Assembly: GCA_963739305.1 (NCBI GenBank)
Contig: CAVTZU010000018.1
Location: forward strand, 64,001-128,000
Direction of reading: 5' to 3'
From: Candidatus Bathyarchaeota archaeon
GTDB lineage: Archaea > Thermoproteota > Bathyarchaeia > Bathyarchaeales > Bathycorpusculaceae
Length of the DNA: 64,000 nt
Part shown: positions 46,280 through 64,000 of the stretch, piece by piece
How positions within the stretch are numbered: position 1 is the first letter of the stretch
Layout: each line of letters starts with the position of its first letter
Translations under genes and position numbers: made by a program
The notes under the pieces: model-generated
What the model was told of the DNA's origin: nothing
What the model saw: only the letters and a program-made list of their open reading frames with translations
Database searches by the model: none

Positions 46280-47122
46280 CTAGTAGTCTGCTAAGCGCGC
46301 GATTGCACGAAAAGCAACTTGACGCACCCGCACGCTGTTATCGTGGTAGATGATGTCTCGACGTTGGTCCTTTAGGCTTGCACTGAACAAGGGGGGTCCC
46401 CGGTTCCAGTCTCTATTATTGTATTTCTTTTGGTACAAACTAATCGCTGTACGCAATTCATTTGCAGTCAGGCTTCCCTTTATAAGGTTTACACGATACG
46501 TCTTTTCGTAGCCTTTTCTAATAGCATTCTTCGTTTCTTCCATGGTAATGCTTTCCAGAATTTCAGACAGGTTCACCAAGATAGTGTGGGGGTTTTGGAT
46601 CTTAAGAGCGCGTCCTAAAGTGCTAAAGTCAACGTTTACCATCAAGGTGCCGTGATGAAGGATAGCATCATACAGTCTGTGTTGAGCGCTCCCAGAGATT
46701 TTCTTTCTCTCTACTACTATGTTTCCGTTATTGTTGCGAGCTTGAACGCTCAGCATCCCAAGTCCTTCGACGACTCCCCCGCAAAAGAAGCTGTAAGACC
46801 TTTCTACATTCTCGATACCAACGGCCAGAGAGGGCTTCCTGACAATTATCGAATAATTCACATTACCATAGTCATGATAAACAGCCCCACCTCCGGAGAC
46901 TCTTCTGAAGATTCTGATCCCCAGCTTTTCGCAGTCAACAATGCTAGTAACAGACTTGGGATCTTGGAAATGTCCAATGACGACGGCTGGCGGATTCTGC
47001 CACAGACGCAGAGTGTTGGGACCATTATTCTCCAGAACGGATCTTAAAATCGCTTCATCAATTGCCAGATTCATCGCAGGATCTTCGGAACTGTAGTCGA
47101 TCATTCGCCAGTTATCAGTCAT
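46280..47122 (-). CDS. lplA: Lipoate--protein ligase A catalytic domain
   Basis: NLAIDEA, RRVSGGGAVYHD, KKISGSAQ, HHGTL; ATG at 47122. Confidence 0.9.
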   Translation of the reverse strand: MTDNWRMIDYSSEDPAMNLAIDEAILRSVLENNGPNTLRLWQNPPAVVIGHFQDPKSVTSIVDCEKLGIRIFRRVSGGGAVYHDYGNVNYSIIVRKPSLAVGIENVERSYSFFCGGVVEGLGMLSVQARNNNGNIVVERKKISGSAQHRLYDAILHHGTLMVNVDFSTLGRALKIQNPHTILVNLSEILESITMEETKNAIRKGYEKTYRVNLIKGSLTANELRTAISLYQKKYNNRDWNRGPPLFSASLKDQRRDIIYHDNSVRVRQVAFRAIARLADY

Positions 47123-47157
47123 ATCTTGGGCACCTGTAATGAGTTTGGTGGAAGATC

Positions 47158-48240
47158 CTATTTTCCGGGCAATGCGGCCACAACTGCGTTTCTCAGGCAT
47201 TCCCTAGTGGGCAGGGTCTTATCAAATTTCAATTCTCCATTGATGATTATTGCAGGAATTCTGCTGCATTTTTCAGCATCTATAAGGGCTGAGGACAACT
47301 CTGGATAGACTCCATGCTGATTTATCCCCTTTCCTCTCATCCAGACTCTCACTGTGATGTCATCTTGCAAGCCCGACGTGACATCGTTGACAAGATTGAT
47401 GAGCTTACGGCACATTGAAGTCGGAGGATAAGCAACAAAAACTTCAAGCGACGCTTTTCCCATCCCGACGAAGAAGGGTTCTATCCCGTGCACGTTCCAT
47501 TTCTCAAGGTTATATTTGGCTCTGTACAGCAAATTAGTCGATTTCTGTTCGTCTTCTGTTAATTTCTTTTTCAATTCGAAGACTATTCCCAACTTCTTCT
47601 CAAAGCCGTCTATAAGAGCTGTCTTTGCTTCTTCCATCGAAACGTCTTTTCTTAGTTGGCGTTTCAGCGATGTTATCATCAGCTTCTGTTCCGTTGGCTT
47701 TTCAGTTTTGATCATTTTGTTGTAAGCGTTCACGTCAGTATTAACGAGCAGAGTTCCTTGAAATAGAAGGAAATCGTGAAACCATTTTGGCAAAATCCCA
47801 GTCATTCTTCGTTCGCCAATATGAATTCCATCGGCATTCGCCTCAAGTTTGTCACTGAATTTTCGGAGCCCTTCAACGATTGCTGCGTTCAAAATAAAAT
47901 ACTCTGACAGGACAGGCGGGTAATCCGTAGTTCGCGTGTTGAAAAGTGCGGCATTCGCTGTAACAGCAAAATTCAAACTCCCCATATCCATGTAGAAAGG
48001 GTCGGCTGTGACTGATATTGCTCTGATGACTTCAACACCGTGTTTCCTGCATTCCTTTTGGTTGACGTCATCCTTGTATGAACTGCCCGATCCAATAATC
48101 ACAGAGGCTGGGCCTCGCCATAGCCGCAGTGTGTTCGGAGTCAAATTCTCTCTTCTGCTTCTAAAAATGGCCTCATTAATTGCCAGATCCATTCTCGGGT
48201 CGGCTGAACCGAAGTCAAGTAATCTCCATGTCTCAGCCAA
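47158..48240 (-). CDS. Degenerate LplA-like domain fused to a C-terminal thioredoxin-like domain
   Basis: WRLLD...PNTLRLW LplA scaffold with altered catalytic motifs; tail LEVFVAYPPTSMC...IPAIIINGE. Confidence 0.75.
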   Translation of the reverse strand: MAETWRLLDFGSADPRMDLAINEAIFRSRRENLTPNTLRLWRGPASVIIGSGSSYKDDVNQKECRKHGVEVIRAISVTADPFYMDMGSLNFAVTANAALFNTRTTDYPPVLSEYFILNAAIVEGLRKFSDKLEANADGIHIGERRMTGILPKWFHDFLLFQGTLLVNTDVNAYNKMIKTEKPTEQKLMITSLKRQLRKDVSMEEAKTALIDGFEKKLGIVFELKKKLTEDEQKSTNLLYRAKYNLEKWNVHGIEPFFVGMGKASLEVFVAYPPTSMCRKLINLVNDVTSGLQDDITVRVWMRGKGINQHGVYPELSSALIDAEKCSRIPAIIINGELKFDKTLPTRECLRNAVVAALPGK

Positions 48241-48964
48241 GATTGTTCACCCCAAAGTAGGGACACTTGTTTCCTAAACATTCTTTGTTGAGGTTTCTGA
48301 AATAGCAAGGGCGTGGATCTATCGAGTTGAGGGGTCTTATGTTAAATTCTCGTTCGAGGATCTCTGTTGCCTTCTGTACCGCTGAAAAAGTGCTTGCTTT
48401 GCAGCAACGCGGACCGCCAATCTTTGCGATCATGTGAAGGGATTCAGATACAGCTTCCATTGAAAGCGTCCGTTCTTTGTCTGATAGCATGTTGGCTTTG
48501 GTTGCAATGCTCAGGGCTATGCCTACTCCCGCGGCAGCCCCACAGACACCCCAAAGTCCACACGATGCAAGAAGTACTTTTCTTCCTCTTCTTATCGCTT
48601 CGTCAAATGCTGAATCGTTGATCCCAAATGTGCCCAAGTTTCTCCAAGCAGCTAGTAAGGCGCAGCTTACGACGTAGTGGTGCTCAGGGCCATGCATTTG
48701 GACTGCAGGATGCTTCATCAAGAGGAGAACAACTTTCATGGGATCCGTTTCTTTCGTGGCTCCGCAGACTTTGTGGACAAGCGTTTCAGGAGTGGCTAGC
48801 CTGCAGCTTTCACAAATGTAGTGTCCTTCTTCACAGACGTAGTCTGCTTTCTCAGTTTTTCCGCAAAAGGAACATTTCGTTGCTTCCGAGGTCGATCGCA
48901 AGGGCTTTCCACAGACCACACAATGGAATTCTTCCAGTTCTTCTGGAGACTGTTTCTTCTTCAG
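48233..48964 (-). CDS. DUF5714-like Cys-rich metal-binding protein
   Basis: CVVCG, CSFCG, CEEGHYICESC, MHGPEHH, CGLWGVCG, GGPRCCK, CLGNKCPY; probable CTG start after GGAGGG. Confidence 0.8.
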   Translation of the reverse strand: MKKKQSPEELEEFHCVVCGKPLRSTSEATKCSFCGKTEKADYVCEEGHYICESCRLATPETLVHKVCGATKETDPMKVVLLLMKHPAVQMHGPEHHYVVSCALLAAWRNLGTFGINDSAFDEAIRRGRKVLLASCGLWGVCGAAAGVGIALSIATKANMLSDKERTLSMEAVSESLHMIAKIGGPRCCKASTFSAVQKATEILEREFNIRPLNSIDPRPCYFRNLNKECLGNKCPYFGVNNLG

Positions 48965-48988
48965 TGTCTTTCCCTCCGCGCGCGATGC

Positions 48989-50916
48989 TCATCCCTTAAT
49001 CTTGGCTAGAGGCTTTGGCTTACTCAGCAACAGTAAAGCGGAATTGATTACCACCGATATGCATCCGGCTTCTGCAAGAACAACTGCTAGGACTGGATTC
49101 AGGATGCCAAAAGCGGCTAAACTCAATGCAACTATGTTCCAAATGAAGGCGTAAACTATGTTCCCCTTCATTCTGTTAAATGCCTTCCGACTCAGGCTAA
49201 TCGCATACTCAACCTTTGTCAAGTCGTCTCCAAGGAGAGCTACGTCAGCAGTCTCCACGCCACATCGCTGCCAGCCGCACCCATAGCAAACCCAACATCC
49301 GAATTAGCCAACGCAGGAGCATCATTCACGCCGTCACCAACCATCGCGACTATACTGCCTTTTCTCAGCTCCCCAATGGCCTCAACTTTCTGTTCTGGTA
49401 AAAGCTCAGCGCGGTACTCATCGACCCCGATCTGTTCAGCGATGGATTTGGCAGTCCTTGCGTTGTCGCCAGTTATCATGGCAGTTTTGACTCCTAAACG
49501 CTTAAGCCTTAGTATAGCTTCCAAGGAATTCTCCCTGACCGTGTCAGCCACCACGATGACGCCAATTACATTTTTGTCAAGTGCCACGGGAATAGCTGTT
49601 TTTCCCTCGCTTTCAACTTTACTCATCAATTGACTCGCTTCTTCTGAAATCATCCGTTCCCATCATCTTGGTTCCAATCAGGATGTGCTTGTTTCCGTAA
49701 TGAGCATCCACGCCGTGCCCTGGAACAGTTTTGAAGTCTGTAGGATCAGGAATTTTCATGCCTCATCTCAGTTGCCTTAGCGATGATGGCTTTGGACAGG
49801 GGATGCTCTGAGAATTTCTCGGCAATTGCTGCATACTTGATCGTGTCCGCTTCAGAGTAATTTCCGAAGGTTTTTATCTCAACAACCTTAGGTTCGCCTA
49901 GGGTTAACGTGCCAGTTTTGTCGAAGGCCACCAGCTTAATGTCCTTTAGCTTCTCGATGTGTGTGCCGCCCTTGATTATTATGCCGTTCATGCTGGCATT
50001 ACCGATAGTGCCCGCAACAGCGACTGGAACAGCTATGGAAAGCGCGCAAGGGCATGCGACTAAGAGAACAGTCACGGTTCTGGCCAATGCCACGTCAAAA
50101 CCAAGTGCGAAGTAACTCACCGCAAAGACAGAAGATGCCAAAACTGCCATGATTGGCAAGAAGTAAGTGGTAAACCGATCTGCAATGTTCTGTATCGGTG
50201 CTTTTTTCTCTTGAGCTTCTTCAACAAGTTGAATGAGATGAGCAAGCGTAGTGTCCTCAGCGATTTTTTCAACTTTGATTTCCAGTGCTCCACGTTCATT
50301 GAGTGTTCCAGCAAATGTGCGGTCTCCCACCGTCTTTTCTACAGGAATCGACTCGCCAGTTATAGTTGCCTGATTAACCGTGCTGTGTCCGGAAATCACT
50401 GTTCCGTCAACGGGTATTTTGTCGCCTGGTTTGACTAAGAACGATTTCGTCCATCTTGACCTCGTCTACGGGTATTTCAACTTCGGTGCCGTCTCGACGT
50501 ATTCGAGCAGTGGTGGGGCTCATTTTAATGAGCTTCTCAAGTGCGCCTCTTGTTCTATGGATGATGTAGTCTTCAAGCGTCATACCTGCAAGTATTATGA
50601 ACGCCACTATCGCTGATGCCGTGAGGTAACCAACTGCTTCTGCCGTGCCAGTGGCCGATGCCGAAGGCAGTACGAGACCAGCTATTACTGAAATGAAGAT
50701 GGCGATAGTTGCAAACAATTGAGCGGTAACGTTCCCATGCCGCAGGGATCGAATGCCATGCAAATAGATGCGGTAGCCCAAGGCAACGGCGATCAAAGTT
50801 AAAGCAATGCTAATTTCATGCGCATAAGCTACTTGAGTCCCAGATATTAGGGCCCCTGCTAGAATGAATAGCCCAAGTGAAGCGACAAGAAGTACGCCTT
50901 TAAAATGCTCTCTCAT
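48989..50916 (-). CDS. P1B heavy-metal-translocating ATPase, broken by four 1-nt frameshifts
   Basis: TGES, ACPC, DKTGT, SEHPL, TGDN, GDGVNDAP across consecutive ORFs; shifts near 50437, 49763, 49660, 49258. Confidence 0.88.
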
Positions 50917-51173
50917 TGGATTTCCTCTCTCGATACTATCTCGACTTGGTAGCCTAACTTTTCAATGCGCTCAGTGATCTTGGAGAAGCCAATTTTCTGT
51001 GTGTCGTATTCTATGCTGACTTTGCCGGTTATCTCGTCAACTTTGACTTTCGATACTCCGCTTAACCTTGCAAGTGCGTGCCTGAGGTTTTCTGCTGCAA
51101 AGTCTGAAGCACATGCTTTGCACCCTGTGCAGTCTATTTTCGCGGTATTCAAGATCATTTTTTCAACAGTCAC
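50913..51173 (-). CDS. HMA-domain metallochaperone (CopZ-like) with CxxCxxC
   Basis: IDCTGCKAC...L.GVSKVKVD...IEYD...IEKLGY. Confidence 0.8.
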   Translation of the reverse strand: MTVEKMILNTAKIDCTGCKACASDFAAENLRHALARLSGVSKVKVDEITGKVSIEYDTQKIGFSKITERIEKLGYQVEIVSREEIQ

Positions 51174-51224
51174 GTTAAATCACCTTCAGTTTGAGATTTT
51201 GCGTTGTCAAATTGCTCAACCCAT

Positions 51225-51554
51225 TTAACGGCATGTCACATGCTCAATAGCTTCCTTTGTCAAAGTGCCGACAACCTCAGGAGTCAAGCTATCGATAACA
51301 TTGAAAACTCTCTTATCAACAATCGAATACATTCTTTTAGTTCCATCCTTTCGGCACCTAACTATCCCCACATCTTTCAGAATTTTCAGATGCCGAGACA
51401 CGACTGGCTGCATCAATCCAACATACGGTATTATTTCACACACGCACTTCTCCTTTGTGCGCAGGAATTCGAGTATTTCAAGTCTCGTCTGGTCAGAGAG
51501 GGCATTGAAGATTCTTGCCTTCAACCTAATTTGCCTGTCAGTTTCGTGATGCAT
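51225..51554 (-). CDS. arsR: ArsR/SmtB family repressor (CVC motif)
   Basis: FNALSDQTRLEIL, EKCVCEI, QPVVSRHLKIL. Confidence 0.92.
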   Translation of the reverse strand: MHHETDRQIRLKARIFNALSDQTRLEILEFLRTKEKCVCEIIPYVGLMQPVVSRHLKILKDVGIVRCRKDGTKRMYSIVDKRVFNVIDSLTPEVVGTLTKEAIEHVTCR

Positions 51555-51575
51555 GTTTATGGTAGTAATAATAAG

Positions 51576-51594
51576 AATATTTAAATATTGCTAT
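51576..51594. promoter_or_regulatory. Palindromic bidirectional TATA / putative ArsR operator, copy 1
   Basis: AATATTTAAATATT palindrome + GCTAT, 22 nt from the arsR ATG, between divergent genes. Confidence 0.75.
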
Positions 51595-51627
51595 TAATCT
51601 ACTTTCATTCACTCGAGGTAACAATCA

Positions 51628-52002
51628 ATGTCTGACATCAAGGTCACCGAAAAAGGGCAAAAGATCCTGGCCGTTTGGCATGGAGTTCCACGCAAAGAAA
51701 TCGAGTGGCATCCCACGGTTGAAAAAGAGCTATGCATAGGATGCGGGTTATGTGTGCTTGGTTGCGGAGCCAATGTTTATGCGTTCGATTTCAGTGACAA
51801 CAAACCAGTCGTCGTCGCACCTCTCAACTGTAAAGTAGGCTGCGTAACCTGCGCAAACACTTGCCCAGTGCATGCGATAAGCTTCCCGCCGCTTTCATAC
51901 TTGCATAAAATAATCAAGGAAAAAAAGGTTCTCACCACCAGCAGAGACGAACTCAAGAAGAGTGCAGACAGAATAGGTTACACCTACAAGGACGTGGAAT
52001 GA
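51628..52002 (+). CDS. 2x[4Fe-4S] ferredoxin family protein
   Basis: CIGCGLCVLGC, CKVGCVTCANTCP. Confidence 0.88.
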   Translation: MSDIKVTEKGQKILAVWHGVPRKEIEWHPTVEKELCIGCGLCVLGCGANVYAFDFSDNKPVVVAPLNCKVGCVTCANTCPVHAISFPPLSYLHKIIKEKKVLTTSRDELKKSADRIGYTYKDVE

Positions 52003-52006
52003 TACG

Positions 52007-52762
52007 TTGAAAGGAGAATCAGACGTGCCTCAAACATCAAACTTCCAATATTCTCTTTCGCTCAAGGAAACACTTGGACTGAAGTGGTCACCAGTCGCGG
52101 TCAAACTGGTCAAACCTGATGAACCCATCAACGAAATCCCTCCAAAGTCTCCCAAGAGGCTACGGTACTGTCAACTTCTGATGGAAGGAAAAAGGGGAAA
52201 AAGCGCGACTCTAACAAACGAAAACATTGCTTGTCCTGCTGCCGCGGCAGCTTTAGGGCTTATGCCTCTTCCTGAGAAGATCAGCAGTGGGAAGATGCTT
52301 AAAACACTCGGCCTGTTTGAGTCTGAAGAGGCTGCAGCAAAGACGATGGCGCAAATGTCAAGAATAAAACTGGGAGATGTCAAAGCAATCGCTGCTGCTC
52401 CACTTGAAAATGCGACATTCAGACCAGACGTCGTCATAATTGAGGACAACCCCGAAAGAATAATGTGGGTAAATCTGGCCGCAATTCACGAAACCGGAGG
52501 ACGTCTTTCTTTCAGCTCTGCCGTTTTTCAAGCTTGCTGCGTAGATGTGACGGTCATTCCATATCTTACCAAGAATGTCAACGTTAGCCTAGGCTGTTAT
52601 GGCTGCAGAGATGCCACCGACATAGCAGACGATGAATGTCTTGTTGGAATACCAATGGAAAAACTGGACGAAATAATCACATCGCTTAAAGCCCTAGCCC
52701 AGAAAGCCATGCCCGAAGCCCGAAACAAAGGAGTCTACAACCAGTTCGTCAAGGTTCAATAG
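52007..52762 (+). CDS. DUF169 family protein
   Basis: SPVAVKL, RYCQ, CPAAAAALG, PDVVII, ACC, SLGCYGCR. Confidence 0.88.
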   Translation: MKGESDVPQTSNFQYSLSLKETLGLKWSPVAVKLVKPDEPINEIPPKSPKRLRYCQLLMEGKRGKSATLTNENIACPAAAAALGLMPLPEKISSGKMLKTLGLFESEEAAAKTMAQMSRIKLGDVKAIAAAPLENATFRPDVVIIEDNPERIMWVNLAAIHETGGRLSFSSAVFQACCVDVTVIPYLTKNVNVSLGCYGCRDATDIADDECLVGIPMEKLDEIITSLKALAQKAMPEARNKGVYNQFVKVQ

Positions 52763-52793
52763 ACGCAGCTTATACACAAAAGAAGGTTTGAGC

Positions 52794-53165
52794 ATGGAAA
52801 AAGTCAAGGTAAGACTGGAAATCTATGAGGACGACCCGTTTGGAAGCACTTGCTGCGGCCCTGGTCCCCGAGTGACTTCTCTTGCAGCAGTAGAAAAGCT
52901 GCGGAGAATGTTGGAAGAACGGAGCGAAATAATGAACAGACTTTCAGAAGAATACAAAGACAGCGTCACCATAAAAAGAGATACCATTAACCAGAAACGA
53001 TGGGATTACCCAGAGTACGTAATGAGGCTAATGTTAGACAGCAAACCAACACCTTACATATTCATCGACGGGGAACCCGTCATAGTCGGCAAATTTCCAT
53101 CCTACGAAGAATTCATAGCGTTGCTGAAAGCAAGTTTGAGAAATGAGCAAAAACAAGGCCAATAG
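52794..53165 (+). CDS. ArsD-like thioredoxin-fold metallochaperone
   Basis: LEIYEDDP..TCCG N-terminus; PYIFIDGEPVIVGKFPSYEE resembles ArsD LPLLLLDGETVMAGRYP. Confidence 0.65.
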   Translation: MEKVKVRLEIYEDDPFGSTCCGPGPRVTSLAAVEKLRRMLEERSEIMNRLSEEYKDSVTIKRDTINQKRWDYPEYVMRLMLDSKPTPYIFIDGEPVIVGKFPSYEEFIALLKASLRNEQKQGQ

Positions 53166-53514
53166 GCAAGACTTGATGGATAGAGTTATCAGAATCAGAA
53201 GCTGGCAAGAATTCAAGCGCTTAGCTATCAATCTCAAACCTGAGTCCGTGGTTTACAACATAGAACAGAACGGTCTTTCTCCAGAAAGAGAGCTGACCTG
53301 TTTGAGGTTGATCATGCCGACTCAAGAAGTAGCGCGCGCGCTCTACTACATTTTCCTTGACTTCCCAAGAGAGGACGACTGCGGGAAACAGGCCATTCCA
53401 ATACGAAAGGATAGAAAAGGGAACGGATGCCTGGAGGACAAAGATATAATAGATTTTCTCAAAACCCAACTAGAAATAAAGGATTTGACCGTCTGTTCGT
53501 ACTGGACTATCTAG
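53143..53514 (+). CDS. Hypothetical protein
   Basis: ORF overlapping the end of the ArsD-like gene; no family recognised. Confidence 0.55.
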   Translation: MSKNKANRQDLMDRVIRIRSWQEFKRLAINLKPESVVYNIEQNGLSPERELTCLRLIMPTQEVARALYYIFLDFPREDDCGKQAIPIRKDRKGNGCLEDKDIIDFLKTQLEIKDLTVCSYWTI

Positions 53515-53615
53515 TGGTCACACTTCAGAAGATGGCGCGCGCTATGCTTCTAGGGAAAATGTGCGTGCTAAATCTTAAATTCTGTCTGACTAATAGTGGG
53601 ATTTGGTAATTTAGT

Positions 53616-55122: not shown

Positions 55123-55177
55123 GCTTCATCCTCATTCTACTAGTCTTGAGTTGGCACCCTCACTTTAAGCTTGAAGA

Positions 55178-57592: not shown

Positions 57593-57637
57593 CCGAGTGC
57601 CTCTGTCTCACTTAATGAAAAAGCCAATATTGCCCCC

Positions 57638-57961
57638 TCAAACCAATTGTTCAACGATACGTTTTGAAAGAGTGCCTATCAGCTCCGGGGTCACCGCATC
57701 GATTATCTCTAATACTCTGCGATCTGTAATTGAGTAGAGTCTTCTGTTCGCGTTTTTTCTGTCCCTCACTAGCCCAGAGTCTTTGAGAATTTTCAAATGG
57801 CGGGACACCATGGGCTGGATAAGTCCAACATGTGGGATTATCTCGTACACGCATTTCTCGCCAGTGCGTAGGAATTCCAGGATTTCAAGCCTCGTCGAGT
57901 CCGAAAGGGCATCGAAAACTTTAGTCTTGAACTTGACCAGTTTATCTGTCTGGGGGTGCAT
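57638..57961 (-). CDS. arsR: ArsR/SmtB family repressor, paralogue (CVY motif)
   Basis: FDALSDSTRLEIL, EKCVYEI, QPMVSRHLKIL; close paralogue of 51225-51554. Confidence 0.92.
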   Translation of the reverse strand: MHPQTDKLVKFKTKVFDALSDSTRLEILEFLRTGEKCVYEIIPHVGLIQPMVSRHLKILKDSGLVRDRKNANRRLYSITDRRVLEIIDAVTPELIGTLSKRIVEQLV

Positions 57962-57981
57962 GTTTAAGGAAATATTGATGA

Positions 57982-58001
57982 CAATATTTAAATATTGCTA
58001 T
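57982..58001. promoter_or_regulatory. Palindromic bidirectional TATA / putative ArsR operator, copy 2
   Basis: CAATATTTAAATATTG 16-bp palindrome; 19 bp identical to 51576-51594 at the same 22-nt spacing from the arsR ATG. Confidence 0.78.
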
Positions 58002-58060
58002 GGATTACTCTATCTGCCAACGTGCGAAAGAACAAGAGAGCATGAAAAGAGGTGCAAATC

Positions 58061-58429
58061 GTGGAGAAAAAAAAGGCAAGTTTCATATTCTGTGTGTGCA
58101 CGGGAAAGTGTAGTGGATTCAAGGATCTAGACATGTGGGACTTCGTTAACATCGTAAGAGCCGAGTATCCGGTCGAATATGCGTTCATACATCCCATGCT
58201 CTGTGATGAAGACGGGGAACGCTTCTTTGCAGACTTCCTCCGAAAAGATAGGGTATATTTCATCGCTGGCTGTGCTGCAGTGATGCAGAAAAAGCTCTTT
58301 CGAGACGCGTTTGAGAAAGCTGGACTTGACATAAACAAGGATCTAGTTCCTCTAGACGTCAGGAACATGACTACAGAAAAAGCATTGGAAACCGTGAAGA
58401 AAGCCTTGGAGGCTACAACCCAAACATGA
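58061..58429 (+). CDS. Stand-alone HdrA N-terminal-like Fe-S domain protein
   Basis: FCVCTGKC...HPMLC...G...IAGC...LFR...AGL...LDVR mirrors the HdrA N-terminal CxC/LC/AAC/NIR pattern. Confidence 0.65.
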   Translation: MEKKKASFIFCVCTGKCSGFKDLDMWDFVNIVRAEYPVEYAFIHPMLCDEDGERFFADFLRKDRVYFIAGCAAVMQKKLFRDAFEKAGLDINKDLVPLDVRNMTTEKALETVKKALEATTQT

Positions 58430-58717
58430 CAGAAGAAACATACATGGGAGTTCCACGAAGCAAAATCCCTTGGTGCCCAAAGATCGATACAGCAAAATGT
58501 AACCAGTGCGAGGGCGACCCGCAATGCCTCAGATTCTGCCCCCATGGAGTGTTCGAATACAACAAGGAAAAGAAGGAATTCATCGTCAAAAACCCAGAAC
58601 AACTGCGTCGTGTTCTGCAGGGCATGCTCCAAAGTCTGCGCCGCGGACGCACTCAGTTTTCCAGAGAAGAAGGAAATTCTGAAGCTGATAAAAAATGTCC
58701 GAGAAGAAAAAAAGTAA
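58426..58717 (+). CDS. 2x[4Fe-4S] ferredoxin, 1-nt frameshift near 58597
   Basis: CNQC...CLRFCP; removing one G gives NPNNCVVFCRACSKVC...REEKK stop. Confidence 0.82.
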
Positions 58718-59099
58718 GTACATAATCATCCCGTGTAGCGGGATCGGAAAGGCACTCGGAACGATAACGCGTAGAGCCACGTACATCGTGACCGAAGAAC
58801 TGTTGCCGAATGATACCGATTCTATTTGTCTTCCTTTGCTCACAATCGAAGACGAGGAGACTGTGCGGAAAATAAGAGAGAACCCTTGCATAACCCTAGA
58901 TGGCTGCGTTGCTCAATGTGCCAAGAAAAATGTTGAACACCATCACGGAGAACTCAAAGGAAGCATCAGGATCCTGGACGTGATCAAGGAGAATCCTAAG
59001 CTTAAGCCTGGAACGGTACTGGACATCGGACCTGACGGTGAGAAACTGGCAAGAAAAACAGCCGAAAAAGCCGTCAAAATCATAGGAGATAAAAATTGA
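58695..59099 (+). CDS. DGC-domain putative zinc-binding protein
   Basis: PCSG, ICLP, LDGCVAQCA. Confidence 0.88.
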   Translation: MSEKKKSKYIIIPCSGIGKALGTITRRATYIVTEELLPNDTDSICLPLLTIEDEETVRKIRENPCITLDGCVAQCAKKNVEHHHGELKGSIRILDVIKENPKLKPGTVLDIGPDGEKLARKTAEKAVKIIGDKN

Positions 59100-59503
59100 A
59101 GATCAAACGCAAAATCGGCTTAATCTCCTGCAGCGGAGAAGGGCTTCCTGAAGGAATGATATCCCGCGTAGCAACTCGAAGAATACTAGAAGAACGCGAC
59201 GACGTCGTAACAATCTGCCTTCCTCTCTTTCTCGCAGGCGGACAAGAAGAGAGAGACTTCGCCAAGGACAATCCTTGCATAACCGTTGACGGCTGCGACA
59301 AGATGTGTGCCGCCAAAGGCGTCCAAATGTACGGCAAAGTGCATCCCAAATCGTCAATAGTCATATCAGACATTGCAGAAAAACATAAACATCTTAAACC
59401 CAAATCAAAAAGCAGAATAGAACCTCAAGACGAGAAGCTTGTTAAAGAAACCATGAAACGCATTACTGAGGAGATAGACAGAGTAGAGGAGGAAGAAGAG
59501 TAG
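59096..59503 (+). CDS. DGC-domain putative zinc-binding protein
   Basis: SCSG, ICLP, VDGCDKMCA. Confidence 0.88.
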   Translation: MKIKRKIGLISCSGEGLPEGMISRVATRRILEERDDVVTICLPLFLAGGQEERDFAKDNPCITVDGCDKMCAAKGVQMYGKVHPKSSIVISDIAEKHKHLKPKSKSRIEPQDEKLVKETMKRITEEIDRVEEEEE

Positions 59504-59504
59504 C

Positions 59505-60311
59505 ATGTCAATAGAAAAGAAAGTTGCCGTTGCTGTTTGCACAGGCATGGACCGACCGCTTGCCACAGTGTCCAGATACGCAGGATACCATGTTCTAGAA
59601 AAACTGAGGCCAGACAAGACTGTCTTGCTTTGCACTCCAGCCCTAATAAGTGGCGTTAAAGAGGACGTGACCTTTGCCAAAGAGAACCCTATATTGGTCA
59701 TCGATGGCTGTGAAGAGAGATGCTGCGAAAAGATAGTCAATGAAGCGAAAGGACAGATCAAAGCCATCATAAACGTTGAAGACGTCCTGAAAGAACACGA
59801 GGACTTGCAGCCTGAGTCGAGAGCTAAGCTTGGGCCGAAAGGAATGAAACTTGCGGAAATAGTCGGAGAACTGGCCGCGAAGAAGGTCGATGAAATACTC
59901 GCAGGGGTGAAAGAGATGGAAGATAAGAAAGTCGCTATCGTAGCCTGCACTGGCATGGGAAAAGCACTTGGGACAGTAGCTCGACAGGTCGCCTTCAAGG
60001 TCGTGGATGAACTGCGACCTGGAAAAGCAGTGCTGATATGTATTCCATCTCTCACCGCAGGAGTCGGAGAATACAAGAACCTGTTGCAGAAGTATCCTTC
60101 CATCGTACTGGATGGTTGCGTGGAAAGGTGTGCCACTAAAATCATTTTCAAGAACAAAGGCATTATGAGGGCTAAAGTTTTCATGCCTCAAATGGTCGCA
60201 AAGTATGGCTTAAAGCCCCTGTCCCGAACTGACCTCGGTGAAGAAGGGGAGAAACTTGTTACGAAAATAGCTGAAGAAGTAGCCGCGTTAGTTGACCAGC
60301 TTTCAAGGTGA
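59505..60311 (+). CDS. Tandem double DGC-domain protein
   Basis: CTG...LCTP...IDGCEERCC and CTG...ICIP...LDGCVERCA. Confidence 0.88.
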   Translation: MSIEKKVAVAVCTGMDRPLATVSRYAGYHVLEKLRPDKTVLLCTPALISGVKEDVTFAKENPILVIDGCEERCCEKIVNEAKGQIKAIINVEDVLKEHEDLQPESRAKLGPKGMKLAEIVGELAAKKVDEILAGVKEMEDKKVAIVACTGMGKALGTVARQVAFKVVDELRPGKAVLICIPSLTAGVGEYKNLLQKYPSIVLDGCVERCATKIIFKNKGIMRAKVFMPQMVAKYGLKPLSRTDLGEEGEKLVTKIAEEVAALVDQLSR

Positions 60312-60315
60312 AAAG

Positions 60316-60789
60316 ATGGAACAATTAGAACTGAAAGTTGACAAATATACGTTCATCGTTCCTAAAGGTCTCTACTACAACGAGAATGATTTTTGGGCCA
60401 GAATTGAGGGCAAGATAGCAACCGTCGGCATAACGTCCTATCTGCAAAATCATTTGAGTGACATAGTCTTCGTCTCTCTCCCACAAATCGGCACCAAAAT
60501 TGAACAATTCGGTGAAGCCGGATCCTTTGAATCAGTGAAGGCTGCTCTGGACGTTATATCACCTGTTTCAGGCTCAATAGTTGAAGTCAACAATGAATTA
60601 GTGAATTCGCCTGAACTTGCAAATTCAGATCCATATGGCAGAGGCTGGTTCGTGAAGATCGAGCTGACAGATTTTGAGTCAGACAAAGAGAATCTCATAG
60701 ACGCAGAAGGCTACTTTGAGGTCATGAAGAAAAAAGTGGAAAAAGAACACGAGCAACTGAAACAAAAGCGAGCTGTAAACACGACTTAG
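60316..60789 (+). CDS. GcvH-like lipoyl carrier protein (second copy)
   Basis: VGITSY, FESVKAALDVISPVSG (lipoyl Lys), NSDPYGRGW. Confidence 0.9.
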   Translation: MEQLELKVDKYTFIVPKGLYYNENDFWARIEGKIATVGITSYLQNHLSDIVFVSLPQIGTKIEQFGEAGSFESVKAALDVISPVSGSIVEVNNELVNSPELANSDPYGRGWFVKIELTDFESDKENLIDAEGYFEVMKKKVEKEHEQLKQKRAVNTT

Positions 60790-60807
60790 AAAGAGGGCAG
60801 GCGAGTC

Positions 60808-61038
60808 GTGGAAACAAGTTTCAAGGAAATACGCGAGAAATATCGTTCTGTCAAGACCGGAAAGTCCAGCATTGACGTTTTCTCTCTGAAATCAGAAATT
60901 GAGACCTATGTGAAGAGTCAGCAAGGTTCGAAAACAAGAAACAGCAATTCTTTGGCGGAGGCAGAGGACATGTTGATTGATGTGACACAGATGATTGAAG
61001 AGGGCCACTGCAACCCTCTAAGAAATAAGAAGCTGTAA
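60808..61038 (+). CDS. Small hypothetical protein
   Basis: 76-aa ORF 18 nt after the GcvH-like gene, C-terminal GHCNP. Confidence 0.55.
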   Translation: METSFKEIREKYRSVKTGKSSIDVFSLKSEIETYVKSQQGSKTRNSNSLAEAEDMLIDVTQMIEEGHCNPLRNKKL

Positions 61039-61122
61039 GTCATACTTCTGTCTGAGTTGGAACTATGAAGAAAATTCCGTTTGTCGCCCGCGCTAGTACT
61101 GAAATGAGGCTGTGATTAAGAC

Positions 61123-61557
61123 TTGGAAAAGACTAAAGTCATTTTTCTATGTGTAGGAAATTCGGCACGGAGCCAAATGGCTGAAGCATTCCTAAGAAAA
61201 TATGCAGGTAATCATTTCGAGGTCTACAGTGCAGGCTTCGAACCCCGACCCATCCACCCTTACACCATCAAGGTGATGAGAGAACTGGGATATGACTTGA
61301 GTGGCCAGCATCCAAAGGAGTTGAAACAGTATCTTGGAAAGATACATTTCGGGATAGTCATAACAGTATGTGAAAAAGCAGAAAAGACGTGCCCTATGAT
61401 ACCAGGGGCATCCACTAGATTGTATTGGCCATTCGAAGACCCAGCAGCATTTCAAGGAACTGAAGAGGAGAAATTAGCCAAATTCCGAGAAGTTCGAGAT
61501 AAAATCAACGAAAAGATAAAAACATGGCTGAAAGACAGAGGCATCGCGGAAAACTGA
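61123..61557 (+). CDS. arsC: Arsenate reductase ArsC (LMW-PTP fold, thioredoxin-coupled type)
   Basis: FLCVGNSARSQMAE, TVC...TCP, WPFEDP. Confidence 0.88.
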   Translation: MEKTKVIFLCVGNSARSQMAEAFLRKYAGNHFEVYSAGFEPRPIHPYTIKVMRELGYDLSGQHPKELKQYLGKIHFGIVITVCEKAEKTCPMIPGASTRLYWPFEDPAAFQGTEEEKLAKFREVRDKINEKIKTWLKDRGIAEN

Positions 61558-61672
61558 AAACCTCAAGATAATCGCGCGTCCAATATAGGCGATGAGGTTA
61601 CGGTTAGTTTTCCAAGCGAAAAAAGTTATGTATTCGCATATGCAAGTGGATGGTTAAGGGAGGAATTAGCTG

Positions 61673-62335
61673 TTGAGTGATCTCCTCTTGAAGTGGTTTG
61701 AGAAACGCAGAGAATCAAAAGCTTTAGCTCCGATGCAACGCCATCTTGCGATAACAATGAGCTCAGTTGAAGACCTTGAAAGTGCAGTAAAAGCAGCAGT
61801 TGATCTCAACGAAAAAGAAGCCAAGGCTGCAATAGGAAGGGTCACAAGTTCTGAGAAGGAAGCCGATGGACTGAGGAGAGCCGTTATGACTGAACTGGCA
61901 TGCGGGGAGTTGCCGCCCTCAGACAGAGAATACCTGATGAACTTAATGAAGTCCGTCGACATGGTCGCAGACTGTAGCCAAGAATCAAGCCGGCTCTTGA
62001 GTGCCATTCCAATGGAAGATGTGTCAGAAAACCTCAAAAAAGCGCTGGTCAAGATGGTGGAAGGCGCTAAAGAATGTGCCATGGCGCTGCGAAAATGCAT
62101 TAATAGCATACCGGAAAAACGCGAAGAAGCCTTAAAAGCAGCAGACGAAGTCGAACGATTAGAAGAGAAAGTCGACGACCTATTTGAAAACTCCAGACGT
62201 TTGATCGCCAGAGAGGAGAAGATTCGGGTAGGAACCGCCATATTACTGAATGATCTCTTTGAAGCTATTGAAATGGTTGCCAATCGATGTGAAGACGCCT
62301 GTGACCAAGTGAGAGTGATTGTCTGCTGCCGATAA
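61673..62335 (+). CDS. DUF47 / PhoU-like phosphate transport regulator
   Basis: EKEADGLRR, DMVAD, LEEKVDD, ANRCEDACD repeated helical motifs. Confidence 0.88.
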   Translation: MSDLLLKWFEKRRESKALAPMQRHLAITMSSVEDLESAVKAAVDLNEKEAKAAIGRVTSSEKEADGLRRAVMTELACGELPPSDREYLMNLMKSVDMVADCSQESSRLLSAIPMEDVSENLKKALVKMVEGAKECAMALRKCINSIPEKREEALKAADEVERLEEKVDDLFENSRRLIAREEKIRVGTAILLNDLFEAIEMVANRCEDACDQVRVIVCCR

Positions 62336-62416
62336 ATGTTTTAGAAGGTGGATGGACGACTATCGTCCACGGTAATTGTCGTAGCGCACGCCAGTAACGC
62401 GACAAGGTGTTTGTGA

Positions 62417-62911
62417 ATGGAAAAGATAAAAGTTCTTTTTTTGTGTGAACATAATTCCGCCCGATCGCAGATGGCTGAAGGTTTGCTTAGGCATCTGTAC
62501 GGTGAAAAGTATGAAGTGTTCAGCGCGGGCGCAAATCCGACGCAAGTCAATCCTTTTGCCATTAAGGTTATGGCCGAGATAGGGATAGATATTTCCAAGC
62601 AGACTTCCAAGAGCATTGAAGAGTTCCGAAACAAGGAAATCGACTTAGTCGTATCAGTGTGCAGAAGCAGTGCCAAGCTAATGTGTTCATTGTGTTCTTC
62701 ACCGATAGTCATGGGTAGACCAGAGATAATCAACACGACAATACCCGGAGCAAAACACTATCTTCACCATGGATTCAACGATCCTTCTGAGGTGGACGGG
62801 AGTGACGAGGAAAAAACCAAGGCCTTCCGACGCACAAGAGATGACATCAAACAGTGGATAATCGATAAATTTGCCGATCCAAAGACAGTAAACTCGGACA
62901 ATGATTTATAG
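62417..62911 (+). CDS. arsC: Second ArsC / LMW-PTP family protein with Cys-containing insertion
   Basis: FLCEHNSARSQMAE, VSVC, MCSLC insertion, FNDP. Confidence 0.8.
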   Translation: MEKIKVLFLCEHNSARSQMAEGLLRHLYGEKYEVFSAGANPTQVNPFAIKVMAEIGIDISKQTSKSIEEFRNKEIDLVVSVCRSSAKLMCSLCSSPIVMGRPEIINTTIPGAKHYLHHGFNDPSEVDGSDEEKTKAFRRTRDDIKQWIIDKFADPKTVNSDNDL

Positions 62912-63265
62912 GCGCGCTCTGCGCGATGTCAATTGAAAAATGTTATCACTCCTAGGGCGCCTTACTAGTCTGCGCGTTGATTGAGTACGGAGAATGTTTA
63001 TTTGTCCGTCTTGCATCCTAAAGTTTGTTAGGCGATGAAGCTCGCCTTTAACCGCCTTTGCTTCAAAAGATGCAGAGGCTGATAGCTTCTACCAGCATTT
63101 AATATAAATGAGTAGGTGCCAGGTTGCGTGAAGCAATGCGGTTCACTTCAAAGAGCACAGCTAATGTAATTCTGAACATACAACCGATCGCAGACTCGTT
63201 ATTGAGCAGACGACGAGTGAAGAATTTTGTGAACCGACAGAATGATGATGGAGGTTCAATGAAAC

Positions 63266-64000
63266 ATGAGTGAGGAATCAACGAGTGGCCAAAACTCTCG
63301 AAAATGGCTGAACAGAAACGTTGCCGCAATGGGTTTTACCAGTCTGTTCAGCGACATGAACCATGAAATGGCTACGGCGGTTCTCCCATTCTTCCTCGCA
63401 ACACTCGGGGCAGGACCTGAGATTTTGGGTCTGATCGAAGGGTTTTCCGACGTTTCTTCAAGCCTCGTAAAGTCTTTCGCGGGATATCTGAGCGACAAAC
63501 TTGGACGAAGGAAGCCTCTGCTAAACATTGGTTACGCTTTAACAGGCATATTCACACCCCTAATAGCATTAGCTACCTCGTGGTATCAAGTGCTCGTCTT
63601 AAGGGTTGGTGCTTGGACTGGAAGAGGAGCCCGTGGACCACCCAGAGATGCTTTACTGGCGGATTCCGTTTCTCCAGAAGTCAGAGGAAAAGCGTTCGGT
63701 TTCCACAGGACCATGGACACATTAGGCGCTGTTATCGGACCCGCCTTAGCCCTGTTCTTTCTAACTTTCCTGAATTATCGCCAGATAATTGCAATATCGG
63801 CAATCCCCGGTCTAGCAGCGTTGCTAGTAGTCCTTCTATTTGTACGTGAAGTCCGAAAAAAACCATCGCCAGACACTCCGATTGTCTCGGCTCATGGCGG
63901 CCTCGTCGTGAAGGACAAAGGATTTGTCACGTCGATCAAGACGCTTCCGAGGTCGTTTCAGCTCTTCCTTGTTGGCGTAGGCGTTTTTGGGCTGGGAAAT
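63266..64000 (+). CDS. MFS transporter (5' part, runs off window)
   Basis: Own translation: SLFSDMNHEM...GYLSDKLGRRKPL (MFS motif A), RGPPRDALL; absent from ORF track because it has no stop in the window. Confidence 0.88.
   Translation, partial: MSEESTSGQNSRKWLNRNVAAMGFTSLFSDMNHEMATAVLPFFLATLGAGPEILGLIEGFSDVSSSLVKSFAGYLSDKLGRRKPLLNIGYALTGIFTPLIALATSWYQVLVLRVGAWTGRGARGPPRDALLADSVSPEVRGKAFGFHRTMDTLGAVIGPALALFFLTFLNYRQIIAISAIPGLAALLVVLLFVREVRKKPSPDTPIVSAHGGLVVKDKGFVTSIKTLPRSFQLFLVGVGVFGLGN

Follow-up and report, generated by a model that had tools for sequence, protein, structure and literature searches.

A lipoyl-carrier gene cassette in an arsenic island of Bathyarchaeia and its counterparts in bacteria

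Why should genes for protein lipoylation lie among arsenic regulators and putative arsenate reductases? The question is raised by a 64-kb stretch of Bathyarchaeia DNA (hereafter the window; contig CAVTZU010000018.1, positions 64,001 to 128,000), whose region between 46.3 and 63 kb, studied here, carries two divergent gene pairs headed by arsR, with a lipoate-protein ligase gene (lplA) in the one and a gene for a lipoyl carrier of the GcvH family (GcvH2) in the other. A first-pass annotation of this DNA had proposed that lipoylation machinery was recruited into a metalloid island, and this proposal held up: in other genomes DGC and GcvH genes are linked, in bacteria they are fused, LplA adjoins them in five loci and arsenic genes are found within 2.5 kb. 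At the centre of the region we recognized a cassette encoding a protein that resembles the N-terminal domain of HdrA (orf125), a 2x[4Fe-4S] protein, two to four DGC proteins and GcvH. This cassette is probably a lipoyl redox module linked to arsenic islands. The whole region is best explained, with confidence that stops a little short of even, as one arsenic-type regulon built around these four kinds of protein.

The roles known for lipoate are those in 2-oxoacid and glycine cleavage and, since 2018, in sHdr sulfur oxidation; a carrier in an arsenic island would add another. We found no paper that connects ars operons with GcvH, LplA or lipoyl proteins (some candidates were judged by their title or the start of their abstract), in agreement with the statement of the first-pass annotation that no such system had been described. 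Pfam was scanned with 30 and NCBIfam with 27 open reading frames (ORFs) of the region, and domain scans covered 76 window ORFs in total. The window contains archaeal-type genes (TFIIE-alpha, aTrm56, an archaeal ThrRS editing domain and a CTP-dependent riboflavin kinase, by Pfam), and its G+C content is even (0.44-0.51), with no step at the arsenic region.

Conservation of the GcvH2 cassette

The cassette lies divergent from arsR2 and consists of the following genes:

58052..58429, plus strand: orf125 (125 aa), homologous to the N-terminal, MvhD-like iron-sulfur (Fe-S) domain of HdrA but standing alone, recognized by a profile match to HdrA
58426..58725, plus strand: cassette ferredoxin-like protein (Fer4_99), in which a 1-nt insertion shifts the frame before the second cluster motif
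58695..59099, plus strand: DGC1 (Pfam DGC, 3.3e-16), of an orthologous group common to archaea and bacteria
59096..59503, plus strand: DGC2 (Pfam DGC, 1.2e-16), of an orthologous group with 100/99 support
59505..60311, plus strand: DGC3, two DGC domains in one ORF (Pfam DGC, 3.7e-30, two stretches)
60316..60789, plus strand: GcvH2, the cassette-type lipoyl carrier (Pfam GCV_H, 4.9e-37), with an alternative TTG start at 60292

As the first-pass annotation had stated, the operon divergent from arsR2 thus includes a GcvH-like gene with a lipoyl-lysine: besides its Pfam match, GcvH2 scored 132.5 bits on TIGR00527 (cutoff 115.85), which places it in the GCV_H family, and the lysine, in the motif 'ESVK', was invariant in 17 archaeal and 12 bacterial sequences. 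The absence of glycine cleavage and 2-oxoacid dehydrogenase genes had also been noticed, and indeed neither GcvT, GcvP nor a 2-oxoacid dehydrogenase E1 or E2 subunit was found in the 76 window ORFs or in 230 neighbour proteins of related loci. To define these loci, an alignment of 17 GcvH2 relatives (364 relatives had been obtained at E<=1e-10 among 389 candidates) was used as the query of a scan of one genome per species, and the 79 pattern matches yielded 42 confirmed loci, designated here by numbers with the prefix L. They come from 37 assemblies, four of which supply two or three loci each, and comprise 28 archaeal loci (27 Bathyarchaeia/Bathyarchaeota and one labelled Nitrososphaeria), three of Actinomycetota, one of Desulfitobacteriaceae (Bacillota) and ten of Bacteroidota; the loci nearest to the window all belong to Candidatus Bathyarchaeia or Bathyarchaeota. 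Genes were called in flanks of 10 kb by comparing six-frame ORFs with the window proteins (phmmer), and the 230 neighbour proteins (111 bacterial and 119 archaeal) were scanned with Pfam, with NCBIfam checks added. In the four assemblies with more than one locus (L008+L040, L010+L011+L013, L004+L017, L034+L038) the two or three cassette copies lie on separate contigs, and binning of mixed strains may be their source.

The co-occurrence of lplA, gcvH, DGC and arsR/arsC genes in other genomes, which had been suggested as a check, gave a positive result, with DGC and GcvH together in 40 of the 42 loci and in four phyla. Orf125 was present in 34 loci, the Fer4_99 ferredoxin in 35 and DGC in 40. 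Of the 32 loci whose contig extends 2.5 kb or more upstream of the match, 31 held both orf125 and the ferredoxin, the sole exception being L021, with a DGC fragment only; the loci missing orf125 or the ferredoxin reach a contig end on their upstream side. The archaeal order is orf125, ferredoxin, DGC1, DGC2, DGC3 (at times duplicated) and GcvH, and the bacterial one orf125, ferredoxin, a DGC-GcvH fusion, DGC1 and DGC2. An N-terminal DGC domain was seen on GcvH in 12 aligned bacterial proteins, two of which were confirmed by Pfam; for L032 and L033 the fusion is deduced from ORF length. At E<=1e-20 the fused protein drew 1352 clusters (90%), of which the best 120 all combine PF01597 with PF08859 and go by the name 'glycine cleavage system protein H' or 'putative zinc-binding protein' in their source records; the protein Atlas clusters retrieved for it were other DGC-GcvH clusters. 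On PLSDB plasmids the same query matched only canonical gcvH, at 44% identity or less, with none of the 125 records covering 80% of the query, and the DGC2-type and orf125 queries had zero matches, that is, the cassette was not seen on these plasmids. Three of the four canonical plasmid gcvH genes fetched lie in gcvT-H-P operons. A separate adjacency of ArsC-family and GcvH genes was encountered in Bacilli: on a Bacillus thuringiensis plasmid (L044, NZ_CP151868.1, 2097-3800) an 'arsenate reductase family protein' is encoded directly upstream of a stand-alone gcvH, two genes downstream of which is a thioredoxin-family gene.

A tree of 23 GcvH sequences split the 17 cassette forms from the six others on a branch with 99/99 support, the outgroup being small (three genes of gcvT-H-P operons, a Bacillus gene, a further GcvH of the window called GcvH1, and the second GcvH of L039). 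The fused bacterial forms scored 99 bits, under the GcvH cutoff. The DGC proteins keep an invariant pattern of Cys, Gly, Arg, Cys, Asp-Gly-Cys and Cys, with four cysteines. The two domains DGC3a and DGC3b, merged into one frame in the window, are separate ORFs in L001-L008. A tree of 45 DGC domains resolved a DGC1 group and a DGC2 group, each with archaea and bacteria, as well as an archaeal GcvH-proximal group and a bacterial fused group, and three DGC orthologous groups are each retained in the cassette. Profile-profile comparison did not show a relation between DGC and orf125 (probability 1.9%).

Orf125 matched no family in the Pfam and NCBIfam scans. Its profile aligned with residues ~1-93 of HdrA (7bkb, 7.7e-4; 9sfi, 1.2e-3; 5odc, 8e-3; 8rvu, 0.99), including four aligned Cys residues, and a bacterial orthologue matched positions 5-102 of the NCBIfam HdrA model (1.4e-4). 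The HdrA N-terminal domain is presumably a carrier of an Fe-S cluster and similar to MvhD. Archaeal and bacterial orf125 proteins are 54-64% identical and share five invariant Cys. In a search of 1.84 billion representatives the family had 135 matches at E<=1e-3 and 64 at E<=1e-10; the long weak matches, of metagenomic origin, were HdrA-type proteins with flavin, ferredoxin and FlpD domains. The FAD/thioredoxin-reductase-like core and the ferredoxin domains of HdrA are absent from the 125 residues of orf125, which is therefore no HdrA and at most like its N-terminal domain. The cassette ferredoxin has two Cys-cluster motifs in its intact orthologues. Ratios of non-synonymous to synonymous substitution (dN/dS) against close relatives were 0.04-0.16 for the cassette genes, the value of orf125 being 0.04, which indicates purifying selection.

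Arsenic genes, a shared site and the lipoylation genes

We then looked at the genes around the cassette. At least one of ACR3, ArsC, ArsM, ArsP and ArsF was encoded within 10 kb in 35 of the 42 loci (34 without an unverified match in L010). The commonest arsenic neighbour was ACR3 (21/42 loci; five of five proteins tested were above the TIGR00832 cutoff). ArsC came within 10 kb in 15 loci, in 11 of them as part of a same-strand chain with gaps below 200 nt, ArsP was found in five loci and ArsF-family genes in eight. The arsenite methyltransferase ArsM was verified in two loci, L040 and L008, in the latter of which it directly follows GcvH, and five more methyltransferase matches in the loci are unverified as ArsM. 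In L031, ArsE (115 bits, cutoff 62) and ArsG (319 bits, cutoff 200) are encoded directly upstream on the same strand. Arsenic-gene matches became rare with distance: among 66 of them, 49 lay at less than 2.5 kb, 12 at 2.5-5 kb, two at 5-7.5 kb and one at 7.5-10.5 kb, with two matches outside these bins and the far bins somewhat thinned by contig ends. The plainest example, the Desulfitobacteriaceae locus (L029), carries on one strand ArsP, ArsR, ACR3, ArsC, a dihydrolipoyl dehydrogenase (Lpd; TIGR01350, 531 bits, cutoff 409), orf125, the ferredoxin, DGC-GcvH, DGC, DGC and ArsR.

Four Bacteroidota loci (L031:13553-16338, L036:11302-13059, L030 and L035) show the cassette, then ArsC, then hgcA and an hgcB-like ferredoxin gene, with HgcA present in all four (NF040863, 434 bits in L031). 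Bacteroidota cassettes are preceded by arsE, arsR, arsF (three copies) and arsG, which brings arsenic genes and hgcAB together in one island; this arrangement may be relevant to the anaerobic transformation of organoarsenicals and to the link that has been proposed between arsenic and mercury-methylation genes. In an Actinomycetota locus (L026, 4967-5653 and 9507-10619) an MtrA-like corrinoid methyltransferase subunit gene stands between arsR and orf125, and a URO-D/MtaA-like gene behind the DGC genes. Past a Bathyarchaeia cassette (L039:13461-16266) there follow genes for a YeeE-like sulfur transporter, DsrE, DsrE, DsrH and a very divergent further GcvH, a set that recalls the surroundings of sHdr-LbpA.

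The two arsR genes of the window are preceded by the same sequence, as indicated by these features:

51576..51594, no strand: 19-bp site with a 14-bp perfect palindrome inside, 22 nt upstream of the arsR1 start, with an exact twin at 57983-58001
57983..58001, no strand: second copy of the site, an identical 19-mer, 22 nt upstream of the arsR2 start
57638..57961, minus strand: ArsR2 regulator, 62% identical to ArsR1 (Pfam, NCBIfam and motif check)
54499-57592, minus strand: two genes headed by arsR2, for a type IIIA proton-efflux P-type ATPase (TIGR01647, 681 bits) and for a DUF3335 protein (C39-like peptidase)

The 19-mer occurred only twice in the window and had no match in 100 shuffles; the 14-bp palindrome was found at the equivalent place between arsR2 and orf125 in six loci (L001-L004, L009 and L014). 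This site is a putative ArsR operator and may double as a TATA region. Since both arsR intergenic regions carry the same 19-mer, the region may form one regulon, and the lplA run and the gcvH2 operon would most simply be controlled through one kind of site. The presence of the 19-mer at both places, together with the gene linkage in other phyla, also indicates that the arrangement goes beyond chance. Among 34 flanking ArsR proteins 27 have a C-[VAT]-C-[ED] box, and those of Bacteroidota have Cys-rich C-termini instead. We take the C-x-C-[ED]-type box to be a sensor of trivalent arsenic. The window ArsRs also scored on the BigR and TsoR models, under their cutoffs. The ATPase beside arsR2 is by its TIGR01647 score a proton pump and not a metal pump; in most related loci ACR3 occupies its position, and L001 and L002 are arranged like the window.

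The arsR1 run reads as follows, from the regulator to the lipoylation genes at its end:

51225..51554, minus strand: ArsR1 regulator with a 'CVCE' box (HTH_5, 1.3e-16; NF033788, 88 bits, cutoff 55)
50913..51173, minus strand: HMA metal-binding protein (Pfam HMA, 4.8e-09)
48989..50916, minus strand: P1B-type heavy-metal ATPase in four ORFs (pieces of E1-E2_ATPase and Hydrolase, Pfam)
48233..48919, minus strand: Cys-rich DUF5714 protein (Pfam, 2.2e-56)
47158..48240, minus strand: LplA-like pseudo-ligase with a C-terminal thioredoxin-fold domain, 360 aa (LplA-B_cat, 2e-21)
46280..47200, minus strand: LplA, a lipoate-protein ligase catalytic-domain protein, 306 aa (Pfam LplA-B_cat, 1.1e-48)

Pfam and NCBIfam agree with the first-pass annotation that lplA and an lplA-like gene end this run. 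LplA, whose true start is likely the Met near 47122, aligned to Thermoplasma acidophilum LplA (2ars, 4.1e-24) with the 'RRVSGGGAVYHD' and 'KKISGSAQ' stretches kept; in the alignment to 2ars and 1vqz (Thermoplasma and Streptococcus) the lipoyl-AMP-binding (nucleotide) loop and the catalytic-Lys stretches are retained in the 306-aa protein. Neither a C-terminal accessory domain nor a separate LplB subunit was detected by Pfam in LplA, the LplA-like protein or their neighbours. The LplA-like protein has lost the GGG..HD loop in four of four orthologues, which have 'SVTADPFYMD' in its place and so lack this ligase feature, and its C-terminal domain conserves 'PTSMC', with a single conserved Cys. 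Its family is small (72 clusters at E<=1e-5 among 2220 candidates, from 5.8 billion proteins) and archaeal by the few names given, with PF13192 on some members. DUF5714 matched the NCBIfam 'metal-binding double selenoprotein MbdU' (4.6e-47, under the model cutoff), and its conserved N-terminus extends in frame to ~48985, where a start codon is absent. A PDB sequence search with DUF5714 produced spurious matches only, to TPR and zinc-ribbon proteins. The P1B ATPase, previously read as intact, is split by four 1-nt indels giving four frame changes with respect to the intact L040 orthologue (89% nucleotide identity); its dN/dS of 0.17 gave no sign of relaxed selection, and a long-dead pseudogene was rejected on this value.

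In L004, L012 and L015 the genes for DUF5714, the LplA-like protein and LplA come directly behind GcvH or after a CBS gene, and in L027 and L028 an LplA with the catalytic domain only is encoded behind the DGC genes. LplA thus adjoins the cassette in five of the 42 loci, and in the window it stands under the shared 19-bp site; in the 10-kb flanks of the remaining 37 loci it was not found. For DUF5714, the LplA-like protein and LplA, dN/dS ranged over 0.20-0.34, the LplA-like protein giving 0.34 against L015. This triad is 86% identical between the window and L015, and GcvH only 62% between the same two. In addition, dS against L001 differed more than 20-fold between adjacent cassette genes (DGC2, 0.07; orf125, 1.6). 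Together, the uneven dS and these identities suggest a mosaic ancestry by recombination or module transfer.

On the other side of arsR1, and downstream of the cassette, lie the remaining genes of the region:

51628..52002, plus strand: ferredoxin-like 2x[4Fe-4S] protein (Fer4_124; Fer4 families in Pfam), a paralogue of the cassette ferredoxin
52007..52762, plus strand: DUF169 protein with conserved Cys motifs (Pfam, 1.9e-63)
52788..53165, plus strand: small thioredoxin-fold-like protein with a 'CC' pair (Thioredoxin_3, E=0.0045 only)
53143..53514, plus strand: hyp123, conserved hypothetical protein without family match, near the cassette in 9/42 loci
53616-54395, plus strand: SDR protein, in the run divergent from arsR1
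60808..61038, plus strand: orf76, small protein with one conserved Cys, in 11/42 loci
61123..61557, plus strand: ArsC1, putative arsenate reductase of the low-molecular-weight-phosphatase type (LMWPc, 1.8e-20; TIGR02691, 2.9e-39)
61673..62335, plus strand: DUF47 protein (PhoU_div; Pfam, 2.9e-25)
62417..62911, plus strand: ArsC2, a putative second ArsC, paralogous to ArsC1 and bearing a Cys-rich insertion (LMWPc, 2.7e-17)

The Fer4_124 protein is 32% identical to the L001 cassette ferredoxin (E=2e-13) and is encoded near the cassette in 7/42 loci. DUF169, which had no relative in a PDB sequence search, comes directly after GcvH in L019, L020, L025 and L039 and upstream in L038. The protein at 52788-53165, previously called ArsD-like, had weak thioredoxin matches in PDB, and its orthologue adjoins the cassette in L014; its identification as ArsD was dropped, no ArsD being found in Pfam (E<=1) or PDB (E<=10). 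Both ArsC proteins keep the P-loop Cys and Arg and two downstream Cys, with 134 and 110 bits on TIGR02691 against an equivalog cutoff of 174; the ArsC type of the window is, we assume, one that needs a protein dithiol. Linkage of DUF47 to the cassette was seen in the window, L002 and L018 only. The earlier report of two ArsC, DUF169 and DUF47 genes interleaved in the region agrees with Pfam, ArsC being below the NCBIfam equivalog cutoff as said, and the earlier gene inventory was right for nearly all the genes that it named; it had overlooked two, orf125 and the cassette ferredoxin.

A few further observations concern the surroundings. Eight kilobases upstream of the region is a second GcvH gene (GcvH1, 38567-38977, minus strand, 136 aa, TIGR00527 139.8 bits), which overlaps by 4 nt the gene of a CoA-disulfide-reductase/NADH-oxidase-like flavoprotein (TIGR03385, 378 bits, under cutoff). 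This pair (37209-38977, minus strand), with no GcvT or GcvP gene nearby, may be another lipoyl carrier and reductase. Just past ArsC2 we found a fluoride riboswitch (RF01734, 63022-63098, 49.8 bits, gathering threshold 34), directly followed by a gene for an MFS transporter (63266-64000) and neither CrcB nor CLC-F; an MFS gene has the matching place in L002, and the riboswitch was not found in L001, L002, L003, L012, L029 and L031. Both cofE (F420-0:gamma-glutamyl ligase; two overlapping ORFs, 42704-43592) and a GT4 glycosyltransferase gene (two adjacent ORFs, 31006-32851) are divided, and these splits are possible further frameshifts.

A proposed lipoyl-protein relay and the rival explanations

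What could such a cassette do? The first-pass annotation had offered three answers, namely a metalloid sink, a repair route for poisoned lipoyl groups and an electron relay to ArsC. Since the cassette combines conserved proteins for electron transfer with a carrier of the disulfide/dithiol type and with Cys4 proteins to which this carrier is fused, its chemistry is likely to be redox chemistry on the lipoyl group, and because it is embedded among ArsR, ACR3, ArsC, ArsM and ArsEFG, its setting is likely to be arsenic. From the redox gene set, the arsenic setting, the dithiol need of ArsC and the gene order of L029, we rank first an ArsR-controlled, Fe-S-linked lipoyl-protein relay that serves arsenic-transforming enzymes, a reading which we hold tentatively, at somewhat less than an even chance. 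That reducing power goes to ArsC-type enzymes in particular is possible rather than probable. The relay builds on what was observed: the gene content, the linkage and its conservation, the fusion of DGC with GcvH, the site common to both arsR promoters and the signs of purifying selection. In such a relay ArsR1 and ArsR2 would sit on the shared palindrome, and binding of a trivalent arsenical would release both divergons. GcvH2 would be loaded by its dedicated LplA, with the LplA-like/thioredoxin-fold protein and DUF5714 as partners. Electrons from a low-potential donor would pass through the Fe-S proteins to the DGC proteins, with dihydrolipoyl dehydrogenase and NADH as a possible alternative supply in one bacterium (L029), and the DGC proteins would reduce the lipoyl disulfide on GcvH2. 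The dihydrolipoyl arm (-0.29 V for the lipoamide couple, as given in a passage of PMC6067878) would then act as a dithiol reductant. Its chief candidate acceptor is the thioredoxin-type ArsC, and ArsM or ArsE/ArsF are candidates in other hosts.

Several results weigh against this relay. That Fe-S clusters are bound, that GcvH2 is lipoylated, that arsenic induces the genes, in which direction electrons flow and which enzyme accepts them are points that we infer. The orf125-HdrA match is marginal (E about 1e-3), DGC had no relative in a PDB sequence search, with no solved or characterized kin, and Pfam describes DGC (PF08859) as zinc-binding. In the 64-kb window neither an ACR3/ArsB efflux carrier (tblastn and Pfam) nor ArsM was found. 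ArsC is rarer near the cassette than ACR3 (15 versus 21 of 42 loci), and since it occurs in only 15 loci, arsenate reduction is not the sole or universal output. The locus L029 has Lpd together with the Fe-S genes, so the Fe-S proteins are no mere substitute for Lpd. Rhodanese, DsrEFH, YeeE-like and AhpD-like neighbours fit sulfur chemistry too. The analysis covered 64 kb of the genome, and its remainder may encode GcvT/P, further lipoyl enzymes and a thioredoxin system. Moreover, the 42 loci were retrieved through the cassette-type GcvH and two thirds belong to one archaeal class, and their counts therefore measure linkage and are non-independent events. Finally, the window copy carries lesions: the ferredoxin is frameshifted, the P1B ATPase is broken, the DUF5714 start is missing, DGC3a and DGC3b are joined in one frame and ArsR2 has lost a Cys of its box. 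Two candidate ligand Cys of ArsR2, replaced by Tyr and Ser, are gone in the window copy alone ('CVYE' and 'KDSG', compared with 'CVCE' and 'KDCG' in the four orthologues of L001-L004). As coding around the indels is conserved (P1B dN/dS 0.17; 97% column identity around the ferredoxin indel), the lesions are either very recent or errors of assembly or sequence.

The relay has to be compared with a sink or chaperone, in which As(III) or methyl-As(III) would be captured by dihydrolipoyl-GcvH2 and the Cys4 DGC proteins, to be either buffered or passed on to ACR3, ArsP or ArsM, an ArsD-like role for pumps without a known chaperone, while the Fe-S proteins merely keep the dithiol reduced. Vicinal dithiols do bind As(III), several DGC paralogues per cassette would give a high binding capacity, the ArsR boxes are of the kind that senses trivalent arsenic, ArsP occurs in five loci and ArsM was verified in two. 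We place this explanation second because ACR3 is the commonest neighbour (21/42) and because Pseudodesulfovibrio mercurii ND132 has an arsR-arsP-arsE-DGC operon without GcvH (according to part of bioRxiv 10.1101/2022.10.17.512643). Nevertheless it appears unlikely: the two electron-transfer proteins kept in 31 of 32 complete loci go beyond the need of a passive sink, a stoichiometric sink is costly, and the Lpd inserted in the L029 operon points to turnover. The conserved Fe-S genes thus favour a redox relay over a passive sink, though ArsC is found in only 15 of the 42 loci. A general thiol- or sulfur-stress module (persulfide, polysulfide or disulfide stress, or LbpA-like sulfur transfer), which would have its ArsR-family regulators and its islands in common with ars genes and not act on arsenic, comes third because of rhodanese (7/42 loci), DsbD-type (17/42), AhpD and DsrEFH neighbours. 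AhpD/CMD, AhpC and thioredoxins are also nearby, L039 has downstream genes for YeeE-like, DsrE, DsrE and DsrH proteins and for one further GcvH, the BigR and TsoR models score the window ArsRs under their cutoffs, and LbpA, the only known non-classical lipoyl carrier, acts in sulfur oxidation (from a portion of PMC6067878). We find this module improbable in view of the ACR3, ArsM, ArsG, ArsE and ArsF proteins beside the cassette, which exceed curated cutoffs, the steep distance decay of the ars genes and the CVC-type boxes in 27 of 34 regulators; HdrB/CCG, TusA and sulfur-oxidation genes were not found in the window scans either.

Two other explanations deserve far less credit. The first-pass annotation had considered repair of poisoned lipoyl groups, and arsenite does target dihydrolipoyl groups, so that an arsenic-induced spare GcvH with its ligase might sustain glycine cleavage, or serve as a decoy or in repair. 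GcvH2 passes the GcvH equivalog cutoff (132.5 versus 115.85 bits), the active-looking LplA appears co-regulated through the shared site, and modified lipoyl groups could be a substrate of the LplA-like/thioredoxin-fold protein. This is very unlikely, given that no GcvT or GcvP is encoded near GcvH2 in the window or among the 230 neighbour proteins, that the cassette GcvHs form a separate clade whose fused forms fall under the cutoff at 99 bits, and that the DGC fusion and the Fe-S linkage would be left unexplained. A chance neighbourhood, with housekeeping lplA and gcvH genes merely beside metal genes, could be suspected from the 11 kb between lplA and gcvH2 in the window, the broken ATPase in front of lplA and the presence of LplA within 10 kb of the cassette in only 5/42 loci. 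It is hardly credible in the face of cross-phylum synteny, the fusion, identical 19-mers at both promoters, LplA genes abutting the cassette in three other Bathyarchaeia and two Actinomycetota loci, and the gcvT-H-P operons around three of four canonical plasmid gcvH genes.

The lipoyl-protein relay may be taken one step further. The DGC proteins could be Fe-S or metal catalytic subunits of a new disulfide-reducing machine, in the role of HdrB or of ferredoxin:thioredoxin reductase, fed by the MvhD/HdrA-N-like and ferredoxin-like proteins; dihydrolipoyl-GcvH would replace thioredoxin as the dedicated reductant in the arsenic biotransformation of strict anaerobes, serve ArsC, ArsM and ArsE/ArsF, and might also drive the reduction of pentavalent organoarsenicals, to which, to our knowledge, no enzyme has been assigned. 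We regard this machine as a doubtful proposition; if it existed, protein-bound lipoate would have a third physiological role, and the DGC and orf125 families would have functions. For the relay in general, the classical target of arsenite, the dihydrolipoyl group, would sit inside a resistance system. A testable function is offered for three uncharacterized families, DGC (PF08859), orf125 and the LplA-like/thioredoxin-fold proteins, and the DGC-GcvH fusion alone accounts for more than 1000 90% clusters. As candidates for new ars accessory genes, the genes of the cassette also concern annotation pipelines, in which they go today under 'glycine cleavage system protein H' or 'putative zinc-binding protein'.

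Comparison with known systems

The cassette shares single features with several described systems. With ArsD it shares the idea of a small Cys-rich protein, in the form of the protein at 52788-53165 with its 'CC' pair on a thioredoxin-like fold; this protein, however, has no ArsD sequence match, and the window has no ArsA ATPase. With HdrABC and MvhD of methanogens (PDB 5odc and 7bkb) it has in common that orf125 aligns with the HdrA N-terminal domain, four Cys included, and has a 2x[4Fe-4S] protein as its partner, in the manner of HdrC and HdrB, with a disulfide as the presumed substrate. It differs from them in lacking a flavin domain (hence any sign of bifurcation) and CCG, and in being made of small stand-alone proteins. 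The GcvH-L/LplA2 stress operons known from Gram-positive cocci, in which genes for a sirtuin and a macrodomain protein occur as well, resemble our region in combining a second GcvH with its own LplA paralogue in a stress-response operon, whereas the cassette has neither sirtuin nor macrodomain, and has Fe-S and DGC partners and an arsenic context.

A further comparison is with those ars operons in which genes for thioredoxin and thioredoxin reductase accompany an ArsC of the low-molecular-weight-phosphatase type (ArsC, TrxR, Trx). In both cases a dithiol carrier and a reductase would be encoded in an ArsR-controlled operon beside a thioredoxin-type ArsC, and the succession of ArsC, Lpd and cassette in L029 mirrors that of ArsC, TrxR and Trx. 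The carrier of the cassette would however be a lipoyl protein, and its reductase an Fe-S/DGC system or Lpd, not TrxR.

The sHdr-LbpA system consists of a GcvH-like carrier, its own ligase and Hdr-like Fe-S proteins, with Lpd as a possible reoxidant of the carrier (in parts of PMC6067878 and PMC10332631), and lbpA is linked to hdrC1B1A-hyp-hdrC2B2 (in a section of PMC6067878); the system is also treated in PMC11094781. The cassette differs from it in several ways. CCG/HdrB, HdrC and an FAD-containing HdrA were not found in the scans of the window or the loci, which hold only the stand-alone homologue of the HdrA N-terminal domain, and the place in which one would expect a catalytic subunit is taken by DGC proteins. 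The radical-SAM maturation proteins LipS1 and LipS2 are absent, with no Radical_SAM protein in the window and one among the 230 neighbours (in L033, away from the cassette). The genes around the cassette are those of ArsR, ACR3, ArsC and ArsM, in contrast to sulfur oxidation, and its hosts are anaerobic Bathyarchaeia, Bacteroidota and others. What the two have in common is a GcvH-like carrier with a single lipoyl domain that stands outside 2-oxoacid metabolism and glycine cleavage, a genetic tie to Fe-S proteins of the Hdr world, and a lipoate-protein ligase of their own (for the cassette, LplA behind it in 5/42 loci); in some hosts dihydrolipoyl dehydrogenase is linked as well, and some loci have sulfur-transferase neighbours. 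Altogether, sHdr-LbpA is the nearest described system, and we class the cassette as a variant of such lipoyl-carrier redox modules, not as a member of either family.

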